Source of the DNA: a virus
Lineage: Duplodnaviria; Caudoviricetes
Length of the DNA: 64,000 bases
Direction: 5' to 3' (one strand)
Virus record (IMG/VR): IMGVR_UViG_3300026549_000038
Span: 32,001-96,000 of that record
Shown: positions 38,945 through 49,492 of the stretch, piece after piece
Layout: every line of letters begins with the position of its first letter
Numbering within the stretch: the first letter of the stretch is position 1
Translations under genes and position numbers: made by a program
The notes under the pieces: model-generated
The model's database searches: none
Told to the model about the DNA's origin: nothing
What the model saw: the letters and a program-made list of their open reading frames with translations, nothing else

Positions 38945-39127
38945 TTATCTGTATTTGTATTTAAAGTTTATATATACTGTAAATACCAACCAATCGAAAA
39001 TGAGATACCTGTCTCCCCAGTCGTTCTCCCACCGAAGAGAAGGCAAGAAATAGAATGTCACGTGCTTGCATGCTTTGTTACATTTTCTTCTCTCAAACCA
39101 AACGCGTCTAACTCCTAGCATTTTCAT
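38945..39127 (-). CDS. Hypothetical protein
   Basis: Overlaps the thyX end, same strand. Confidence 0.4.
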   Translation of the reverse strand: MKMLGVRRVWFERRKCNKACKHVTFYFLPSLRWENDWGDRYLIFDWLVFTVYINFKYKYR

Positions 39128-39704
39128 GGTTTTCTATGGCTTCTTTTCTATATTCTTGCAAGCGTTTTACATACTCTGGAGTTTTATAATATCCGCAGCT
39201 TTTCAATTCTGGACAGAACCCGCGGTAGATGCATTCAGGAACCATTTTCGATGCAAGAACCGGGTCTATATCCTGTATTGCTGCTTTGACCTGTTTCCAA
39301 GCTTCTCGTGTTTCGGGAGAAGCACAACTACAGAGTCTTTTTCTTGAAATGTTTATCAATGATTGTGCGTTGGCAGACATAAGCATGTCATTCAAAGATC
39401 CTTGGGGCATCTCGTCTCTCGAAACTGGATTTTCTCTTCGATCGTCTCTTTGACTGTGCACGAACTTTTCGCAACCTTCGTGGTGTCGAACCAGATGAGT
39501 GGTTACCCATTGTTTTATGTCTTCCCATTTCCAGTCATACTCAACCAGTCTTATAGGAGAATGTTCGGCTAGAAGCATCTTTGCTTCCCAGTCAGAGCTA
39601 ACTTTGTGATTATCAGGCAGTTGCGACTTACCAACAGTCTGCCTGGCGGCGTTCAATGCACGAATCCAAGGTGTAACTTGTTGTATATTAATTACTTTCG
39701 ACAT
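39108..39704 (-). CDS. thyX: Flavin-dependent thymidylate synthase-like protein
   Basis: AEHSP, HLVRH...SQR, RLC..A..ETR, CIYRGFCPE motifs. Confidence 0.75.
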   Translation of the reverse strand: MSKVINIQQVTPWIRALNAARQTVGKSQLPDNHKVSSDWEAKMLLAEHSPIRLVEYDWKWEDIKQWVTTHLVRHHEGCEKFVHSQRDDRRENPVSRDEMPQGSLNDMLMSANAQSLINISRKRLCSCASPETREAWKQVKAAIQDIDPVLASKMVPECIYRGFCPELKSCGYYKTPEYVKRLQEYRKEAIENHENARS

Positions 39705-39940: not shown

Positions 39941-40026
39941 TACCGGAGACGGGAATCGAACCCGCACGACCTTTTCGGATCATTGGATTTTAAGTCCAAA
40001 GCGTCTACCTATTCCGCCACCCCGGC
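39941..40026 (-). tRNA. tRNA-Leu(UAA)
   Basis: Full cloverleaf with variable arm, loop CTTAAAA. Confidence 0.95.
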
Positions 40027-40179
40027 TCGTCTATCGAGTGCTTTGAGAACTTTCCTATCGTATTTTCTCTTGTTCTTAACAACTCTTGTAGGTCTTGTAC
40101 TAATAAGCTTCCCGAAGGTTTCAATTTCGAGCTTTCTATCTACAGCCTTTATACTTTTTATGTATGTTCTCTTTCTCAA
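40009..40179 (-). CDS. Small basic protein, ArfA-like candidate (56 aa, TTG start; stop inside tRNA-Leu)
   Basis: MRKRTYIKSIKAVDRKLEIETFGKLISTRPTRVVKNKRKYDRK...; TTGA overlap with the upstream stop. Confidence 0.55.
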   Translation of the reverse strand: MRKRTYIKSIKAVDRKLEIETFGKLISTRPTRVVKNKRKYDRKVLKALDRRAGVAE

Positions 40180-40562
40180 TTTTCGTTGTTTGTAAATGGA
40201 GCCAATAAAGTAATTACATCGTTTAAATTATAAACGTTTATGTTTAACGATTGGTGCTGCTTATTGTCTGTGTTCCCACCAGGGACTGCCAAATACATAA
40301 AATAGCACTGTAAGAACTCATGTTTATTGCCTCCATCTGAATCAGAAACGTATCCAGGTTCTGCTCCCCACGAGAATACAACAGCATGTTGGTCTGCAGG
40401 ATTGATTACATCTTGTCTCTCTCCATTAATGATTATAGTTTGTGTTGTCCCTGGAGTCCACCAGATCTTATACCACCCCTCTAATCCTTTTTCTGGGTCT
40501 TTATGATACATGAATTTACGATCTTTCAACCAGACTTCTATTTGCTTTTTTAATTCTTCCAT
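40176..40562 (-). CDS. Hypothetical protein
   Basis: Operon position. Confidence 0.6.
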   Translation of the reverse strand: MEELKKQIEVWLKDRKFMYHKDPEKGLEGWYKIWWTPGTTQTIIINGERQDVINPADQHAVVFSWGAEPGYVSDSDGGNKHEFLQCYFMYLAVPGGNTDNKQHQSLNINVYNLNDVITLLAPFTNNEN

Positions 40563-42953: not shown

Positions 42954-43073
42954 TGACCCAGGCGGGGTTCGAACCCACGACCTTTGGTCTTAGTTCAAGG
43001 CTTTACGAGGATTTCTCCGCGGACACTCCCCAACCTTTACTTGCCAACGCTCTACCGACTGAGCTACTGGATC
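42954..43073 (-). ncRNA. tRNA-like RNA with expanded (~55 nt) anticodon domain
   Basis: Canonical acceptor, D and T arms; anticodon loop replaced by a structured insert. Confidence 0.8.
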
Positions 43074-48251: not shown

Positions 48252-48327
48252 TGCCTCCGGTGGGTCCCGCCCCCACGATCACACATCTTAAAAGGATGGT
48301 GCTTTAATCCAACTCAGCTACAGAGGC
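48252..48327 (-). tRNA. tRNA-Lys(UUU), atypical T loop
   Basis: Cloverleaf, T loop GGCGGGA. Confidence 0.82.
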
Positions 48328-49393: not shown

Positions 49394-49492
49394 TGGTGGG
49401 AGAAGGATTCGAACCCCCAATAGGATTTAACCGAGAATTTACCCACAACCTACTCAATGAAGATTGCCTGTCTGCCATTCCAGCACCCCACC
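49394..49492 (-). ncRNA. tRNA-like RNA with enlarged anticodon loop and long variable arm
   Basis: GGTGGGG/TCCCACC acceptor, D and T arms; 9-11 nt anticodon loop. Confidence 0.7.

Follow-up and report, generated by a model that had tools for sequence, protein, structure and literature searches.

A 56-codon open reading frame (ORF) of a tRNA-rich rumen phage belongs, almost certainly as a real gene, to a family of small basic proteins carried by Bacteroidales, and its stop codon lies inside a tRNA-Leu gene. On our best reading, which we hold to have an even chance of being right, the protein is a new candidate ribosome-rescue factor captured by tRNA-rich phages, and the RNase P cut that matures the tRNA would turn its transcript into a non-stop mRNA. 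The evidence comes from the reading frame itself, from the terminators that precede the stop codon in many bacterial relatives, and from the distribution of the family and of known rescue factors among Bacteroidales genomes.

The ORF and the overlapping tRNA-Leu

The source is a 160-kb virus record from IMG/VR with distant crAss-like matches and a GC content of 38%, of which a stretch of 64,000 nucleotides (hereafter the window) was analysed. The gene is situated in a long minus-strand block that contains at least 26 tRNAs, together with genes for NADAR, an RlaP-type RNA-repair nucleotidyltransferase, a metallophosphoesterase, QueD, a radical-SAM protein and DUF7873. The features of the locus, in window coordinates, are as follows.

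40009..40179, minus strand: 56-codon ORF with a TTG start, member of the Bacteroidales small basic protein family
40027..40179, minus strand: codons 1-51 (M..DRR), ending GAT AGA CGA; 5' fragment predicted to remain after an RNase P cut at G1 of the tRNA, given the established role of RNase P
40051..40077, minus strand: codons 35-43, KNKRKYDRK, the conserved basic Tyr motif of the family alignments
40009..40026, minus strand: 18-nt overlap of ORF and tRNA, comprising the AGVAE codons and TAG, within the acceptor stem, D stem and D loop
39940..40026, minus strand: tRNA-Leu(UAA), 87 nt, CCA not encoded (ARAGORN; Rfam RF00005, 57.1 bits)
40176..40562, minus strand: upstream ORF of 128 aa, with only a weak Pfam match (PF25641, E = 0.004)

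The TTG start at 40179 sits in the sequence ATTGA and overlaps the TGA of the upstream ORF, an arrangement that suggests translational coupling of the two frames. At the other end, codon 52 opens on G1 of the tRNA (40026), and the TAG (40011..40009) occupies tRNA positions 16-18 in the D loop. A sequence-only reading of this DNA had described a basic 56-codon ORF starting with TTG on the upstream TGA, with codon 52 at the first base of the tRNA and the stop in its D loop, and each of these elements is present, the last two according to the ARAGORN coordinates and the ORF list. The encoded protein contains 19 K/R and 6 D/E among its 56 residues. A scan of the region for sigma-70 promoters and terminators was uninformative.

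Two further observations concern the annotation of the window. An ORF of 198 aa at 39108-39704 (minus strand) matches the ThyX (Thy1) model at positions 141-191 of 191 only (E = 2.8e-8), is 71% identical at the nucleotide level to the gene annotated as ThyX in Bajarodcaudo virus 1, and appears to be a short or divergent ThyX. In addition, Rfam tRNA matches not called by ARAGORN were found at 42954-43073, 48252-48327 and 49394-49492 (minus strand), the first of which, at 120 nt, would be a tRNA with a large insertion, and the last of which (99 nt) scores exactly at the gathering score.

The overlap of an ORF with a tRNA is on its own weak evidence for a gene because such open frames are frequent by chance in the window, where frames of at least 40 codons enter the 5' end of 5 of the 29 tRNAs; all five were judged spurious because each crosses neighbouring tRNAs. 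It is homology, and not the overlap, that identifies the ORF as real. An HMM of the family built without the phage ORF matched it with E = 1e-21 (71.9 bits), and the next best of 1049 six-frame segments of the window reached E = 0.18 against the same model. A word-indexed search returned a homologue from a 59-aa protein cluster (65% identity, E = 1.9e-11), which has an ordinary bacterial chromosomal setting and its own stop codon. The phage ORF contains all of the family-invariant residues (R15, E18, Y40 and R42 in phage numbering) as well as the conserved lysines.

The phage ORF is also under purifying selection. Identity to the nearest relatives at third-codon positions is ~0.30, which is the chance level, 28 of 37 core residues are conserved between the ORF and these relatives, and pN/pS is ~0.19; third positions at chance together with this low ratio indicate that the copy has been kept under protein-level selection in a phage genome of 38% GC. 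A chance ORF, as its shortness, its TTG start, the lack of a match to any annotated family and the number of chance frames entering tRNAs in this window might suggest, is a reading of negligible probability that is refuted by the match to a profile from which the ORF had been excluded and by the purifying selection, to which 113 distinct relatives can be added.

A Bacteroidales protein family with predicted terminators ahead of many of its stop codons

An exhaustive HMMER search yielded 53 cluster representatives of 47-126 aa, and further family loci were found in genome (53), viral (4) and metagenome (80) collections. The proteins share a conserved core of ~44 residues (xDYxKAVKKADRExEIxxHGKLISTRPTRxxKSKKxYxRK), in which four residues do not vary, namely Arg and Glu within DRExEI and Tyr and Arg within Y-x-R. 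Neither Pfam nor NCBIfam holds a model covering the ORF or the family, the best PHROGs match for the ORF is a family of unknown function (E = 0.03), and the clusters retrieved from the ESM Atlas were all unnamed 'hypothetical protein' entries. Judged against these collections, the protein family is previously undescribed and unannotated.

All named genome matches belong to Bacteroidales and include rumen and gut MAGs, Salinivirgaceae, Dysgonomonas, Prevotella and Microbacter. Of the 201 Bacteroidales genomes sampled, 18 have the family gene, each in a single copy, and within one taxonomic family it is carried by 19 of 25 genomes (76%). An AF2 model of the core (pLDDT 80) starts with a helix, continues as an extended segment and ends in a short basic helix; a Foldseek search of this model against the PDB gave no match, as is to be expected for a 47-residue helix-linker-helix.

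Gene neighbourhoods were variable, with no conserved neighbourhood found across the family. In five loci from bacteria or metagenomes, a tRNA gene on the same strand precedes the family gene by 25-75 nt (tRNA-His in three, tRNA-Pro and tRNA-Leu in the others; L001:3853-3927, L034:1326-1400, L038:1362-1436, L091:1367-1441 and L134:1389-1474), and in L001 a terminator-like hairpin stands between the two. This proximity is a faint sign of a loose link between the family and tRNA genes.

Three subgroups can be distinguished, of which subgroup a has a terminator before the stop codon and subgroups b and c have normal stops, at 16-17 and 13 codons after the Tyr codon, respectively. Past Y-x-R-K the family proteins are unalignable, and their tails have the appearance of a translated terminator (e.g. 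..NPDFLSPDFF.. and ..RDCSNYDDSLFF..). In subgroup a (genome loci L005-L032) a terminator precedes the in-frame stop in 27 of 28 genes, in the form of an A-tract, GC-stem and T-tract with a dG of -12.5 to -21 kcal/mol and a T-run that starts at the Tyr codon +46-60 nt. Applied as a control to the other ORFs of the same loci, the same detector found a terminator before the stop in 2 of 73. An independent metagenome set gave 48 of 77 family genes with this arrangement and, when pooled, 58 of 113 distinct family genes have a strong intrinsic terminator ahead of the stop.

In the pooled set the T-run starts 44 to 60 nt from the Tyr codon (median 51), the terminators comprise 35 distinct stem 8-mers, and the stems covary. 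The read-through tails of these genes are not conserved, with the stop codon falling 19-104 codons after the Tyr, compared with 9-19 codons in family genes with normal stops. The count of 58 of 113 is a lower bound, because some genes classed as having a normal stop keep the hairpin with an imperfect T tract. Four such loci (L084, L102, L128 and L135; Tyr codon to +75 nt) keep an A-tract and a strong GC hairpin where the terminator is normally found; the T tract behind it is either interrupted (TTTAATGATT..) or contains a stop.

These observations make a non-stop design very probable for much of the family. An intrinsic terminator within the coding region of brfA has been shown experimentally to give a non-stop mRNA and a tmRNA-tagged product (PMC6881298). 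As far as can be read from gene structure, the terminator architecture of the family is the brfA design, and it parallels that of arfA.

Origin and possible meaning of the tRNA overlap in the phage

The phage protein is closest, at 65% identity, to subgroup b (L033-L044 and L001), whose members share a conserved C-terminus (KRQLKKILEGR) after the Tyr motif and contain no internal terminator; RNAalifold detected no conserved RNA structure at the 3' ends of this subgroup. The phage sequence tracks subgroup b as far as ..LKALDR(R), at which point its own stop is missing and the tRNA begins, and the AGVAE residues that follow have no counterpart in the homologues. Because these nearest relatives have ordinary stops, the lineage from which the phage copy came was not of the non-stop type. 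Loss of the stop to a tRNA or a terminator in homologues, a prospect raised by the sequence-only reading, is found for the terminator, in the brfA manner, in the 58 genes described above; for the tRNA the search came back empty, as no other family gene among ~135 loci ends in one.

Relatives of the phage itself were sought at several levels. Searches with blastn and tblastn against the phage collection found no close relative, the upstream 128-aa protein retrieved no relative of the phage locus from viral contigs, the ORF retrieved no close relative of the phage with the junction from viral and metagenome contigs, and synteny with the phage locus was not found in Bajarodcaudo virus 1. The family does occur on other viruses. 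Two IMG/VR contigs of ~220 kb (G227, locus L069, and G228, locus L070), which carry 24 and 51 tRNAs in dense arrays, have family members with a normal stop codon, and a third viral contig has the gene in the terminator-before-stop form.

The best explanation for the ORF is that it is a functional phage gene, captured from or shared with Bacteroidales hosts, that would encode a small basic protein of ~50 residues; as a whole this reading seems to us evenly balanced between right and wrong. In the phage gene tRNA-Leu(UAA) would take the place of the terminator. If the ORF and the tRNA are co-transcribed, as their arrangement leads us to infer, maturation of tRNA-Leu from the polycistronic transcript by RNase P would leave an ORF mRNA ending ...D-R-R with no stop, the product of which would presumably be tagged by tmRNA. 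Codon 52 starts with the 5'-terminal base of the tRNA, so that RNase P, whenever it released tRNA-Leu from a transcript that includes the ORF, would produce such a stop-less mRNA, and RNase P-mediated loss of the stop would be mechanistically expected in the phage. The product up to the cut would extend 11 residues beyond the Tyr (12 codons from the Tyr codon), which is inside the 9-19-codon range of the normal-stop members.

Whether the overlap serves a purpose is a separate matter, and we consider an adaptive regulatory device possible, at somewhat less than even probability. An evolved substitute for the terminator is plausible because the family repeatedly uses stop-less mRNAs, and a tolerated by-product of gene packing is a serious rival because the phage copy descends from a normal-stop lineage. 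According to the latter explanation the gene is real and the overlap is incidental genome compaction, in which the gene lost its own stop on abutting the tRNA and met the next in-frame stop by chance five codons into it; the full 56-aa form, made from unprocessed transcripts, would then be the working protein, and RNase P cleavage would merely inactivate the ORF mRNA. The ordinary stops of the nearest relatives and the uniqueness of the arrangement among the loci fit this explanation, as do the tightly packed and overlapping genes of the phage and the ease with which short open stretches into tRNAs arise in an AT-rich window. Against it, half of the family is built without a stop, which marks stop loss as a recurrent and selected state rather than a defect, the AGVAE residues that the 56-aa form would add are absent from the homologues, and maturation of the tRNA from a shared transcript would give a non-stop mRNA however the overlap arose. 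On balance we regard incidental compaction as unlikely, though the strongest of the alternatives.

Building on the reading of the ORF as a captured and functional gene, we tentatively propose, as a scenario that could well be wrong, that ArfB-less gut and rumen Bacteroidales use a tmRNA-controlled rescue protein, that tRNA-rich jumbo phages captured its gene, and that the present phage rebuilt non-stop control through a fusion of the gene, at its 3' end, to a tRNA. If true, production of the factor would be tied both to tRNA processing and to the spare trans-translation capacity of the host, and the removal of a stop by a tRNA would add a new route to non-stop mRNAs. The position of the family genes among tRNAs and RNA-repair genes suggests that phages may defend translation against host nucleases that make truncated mRNAs. 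The freeing of ribosomes from truncated mRNAs would likewise fit phages that invest heavily in translation, possibly in the face of such nucleases. As far as the literature searched shows, the phage copies would be the first candidate rescue factors on phages.

Proposed rescue function and comparison with known systems

Under the proposed mechanism the family protein would be a back-up rescue factor made from a stop-less mRNA, the stop being removed in most bacterial members by the terminator ahead of it. Because the mRNA has no stop, tmRNA would tag and destroy the protein for as long as trans-translation is working, and the protein would accumulate only once trans-translation is saturated; it would then presumably recruit a release factor. 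We consider it slightly more probable than the contrary that the family is a ribosome-rescue factor of the ArfA/BrfA functional type. The support for such a function comes through the relatives, indirectly but substantially, by way of their predicted terminators and of their distribution relative to ArfB.

ArfB (NF006718, above cut-off) is present in 67 of the 201 sampled Bacteroidales genomes and in none of the 18 carriers among them, and it was found in 0 of 36 carrier genomes compared with 67 of 183 non-carriers. A hypergeometric estimate for the non-overlap of ArfB and carriers among the 201 genomes, in which kinship among genomes is ignored, is ~5e-4. The taxonomic family with 19 carriers in 25 genomes has ArfB in 0 of 25, and the exclusion is at least partly clade-level. 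Neither the family gene nor ArfB is present in 116 of the 201 genomes. A tmRNA was identified in all three carrier genomes tested (G001-G003; 135-148 bits) and was searched for and found absent from the phage record. ArfA (PF03889) had no match above cut-off in the same three genomes, and a match in G001 below it (E = 0.18) was rejected as spurious, being the reverse strand of an EF-P gene.

This distribution can be set beside a 2024 survey of ~1,950 genomes of the FCB group (Fibrobacterota-Chlorobiota-Bacteroidota), in which no ArfA or BrfA was found and approximately a quarter of the genomes were also without ArfB (PMC11633108); sporadic absence of ArfB in Bacteroidetes has been noted elsewhere (PMC6514570). 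Other release-factor genes of the carriers were observed in passing. A 206-aa protein of a Dysgonomonas carrier (G003; L068:1438-2058) has a GGQ motif and an RF-1 domain, and looks like PrfH (RF-H) and not ArfB. The RF2 tripeptide for stop-codon recognition is SPY in G001 (L063:898-1947) and in G003 (L067:1408-2466) and the canonical SPF in L064, and the RF2 frames of all three loci start past the expected frameshift site.

Alternatively, the family could consist of small basic proteins that bind RNA or the ribosome in some other role, such as regulators or stress proteins, with a level tied to trans-translation on grounds other than rescue or with terminators that are simply shared and bidirectional. 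A convergent gene follows in at least two loci, where the terminator may serve both genes, many family members have normal stops, no homology to ArfA, BrfA, ArfT or ArfB was found, and the many genomes with neither the family gene nor ArfB are likewise in keeping with a function other than rescue. Several points weigh the other way. The spacing between the conserved Tyr and the terminator stays fixed even though the stems are of 35 kinds, the family and ArfB are not found together, and the basic K-x-K-K-x-Y-x-R-K tail is similar to the tails with which known factors bind the channel. Furthermore, no proteins other than ArfA and BrfA are known to be made from obligatory non-stop mRNAs (PMC6881298; PMC3989581). 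We judge a non-rescue function improbable, at roughly one chance among a handful.

The sequence-only reading had likened the ORF to ArfA, and here function and descent part ways: ArfA-like rescue function gains independent support from the relatives with a terminator before the stop and from the lack of co-occurrence with ArfB, and the assignment to ArfA by homology is not supported. The Pfam ArfA model (PF03889) matched neither the ORF (E <= 1) nor any of 54 family members (E <= 10), and NCBIfam gave no relevant match for the ORF or the family members. Alignment to ArfA with hhalign produced 30-33 ungapped columns with D, E, H and Y-x-R-K in register, at P = 0.072 for a single ArfA and P = 0.03 for an ArfA alignment and with a probability of <2% in either case. 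When ArfA was shuffled with its composition preserved, 209 of 20000 shuffles (1%) scored as well against the family HMM as the real sequence.

The ungapped alignment in register and a score above that of 99% of shuffles are what could be expected of a highly diverged true ArfA, a reading that we nevertheless consider very unlikely given the low significance of the alignment, the failure of all 54 members to match the model even at a permissive threshold, the missing G-K-G-S part of the motif and the restriction of ArfA to beta- and gamma-proteobacteria (PMC6881298). A search of every PDB chain with the family profiles (E <= 10), in a library that may not hold a BrfA chain, returned no rescue factor apart from one lead that was dropped: a 2-sequence profile had pointed to the ArfB-like tail of 2jy9 (E = 1.2), and a 38-sequence profile did not reproduce this. 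Modelling of the RF2 of G002 with the family protein of the same genome, truncated at the terminator, gave a complex score of 0.02, which amounts to no verdict. Since significant profile similarity was not obtained, we treat the family as new, ArfA/BrfA-like in design and a member of neither.

To our knowledge, RF-dependent rescue factors are confined to proteobacteria (ArfA and ArfT) and Bacillus (BrfA). A family of ~50-70 codons with a brfA-type signature would fill the rescue-factor gap in the FCB group, and a terminator before the stop would be a simple feature by which to recognise such factors in other sequences.

The likeness to ArfA lies in a small basic protein, in the case of ArfA made from a non-stop mRNA under tmRNA control, and in a basic K-rich stretch ending in Y-x-R-K (KGKGSYMRK in ArfA, KNKRKYDRK in the phage). 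Only the K..K..Y.RK part of this stretch is shared, however, as G-K-G-S is absent from the family. The arfA gene of E. coli is truncated by RNase III and/or termination and, unlike the predicted phage transcript, is shortened without tRNA processing.

The RF2-dependent BrfA (YqkK) of Bacillus subtilis resembles the family in several respects: a small basic protein of ~60-70 codons, an intrinsic terminator inside the coding region with an unconserved read-through tail (predicted for the 58 family genes), hosts that possess tmRNA, and a predicted shape of helix, extended segment and basic C-terminal helix. It differs in that no sequence similarity was detected in Pfam, NCBIfam or the PDB chains, a library that may lack BrfA; in its occurrence in Bacillaceae, whereas the family occurs in Bacteroidota; and in that the truncating element of the phage copy would be a tRNA processed by RNase P and not a terminator.

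ArfB (YaeJ) and ArfT are back-up rescue systems, and the family is present in genomes where the search for ArfB was negative. The 56-aa ORF protein differs from ArfB in having neither a GGQ motif nor a match to PF00472 (RF-1 domain), and the family differs from ArfT in that none of 54 members gave a KGG-type Pfam match (E <= 10). We know of no non-stop control for ArfT, in which respect it resembles subgroups b and c.

A further parallel is the tRNA punctuation of mitochondria, in which excision of a tRNA sets the 3' end of the upstream mRNA and may leave its stop codon incomplete, to be completed by polyadenylation. In the phage, too, the excised tRNA would define the 3' end of the upstream mRNA. 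In contrast to mitochondria, the stop of the phage ORF would not be restored, so that the ribosome would stall and the product would come under the control of trans-translation.
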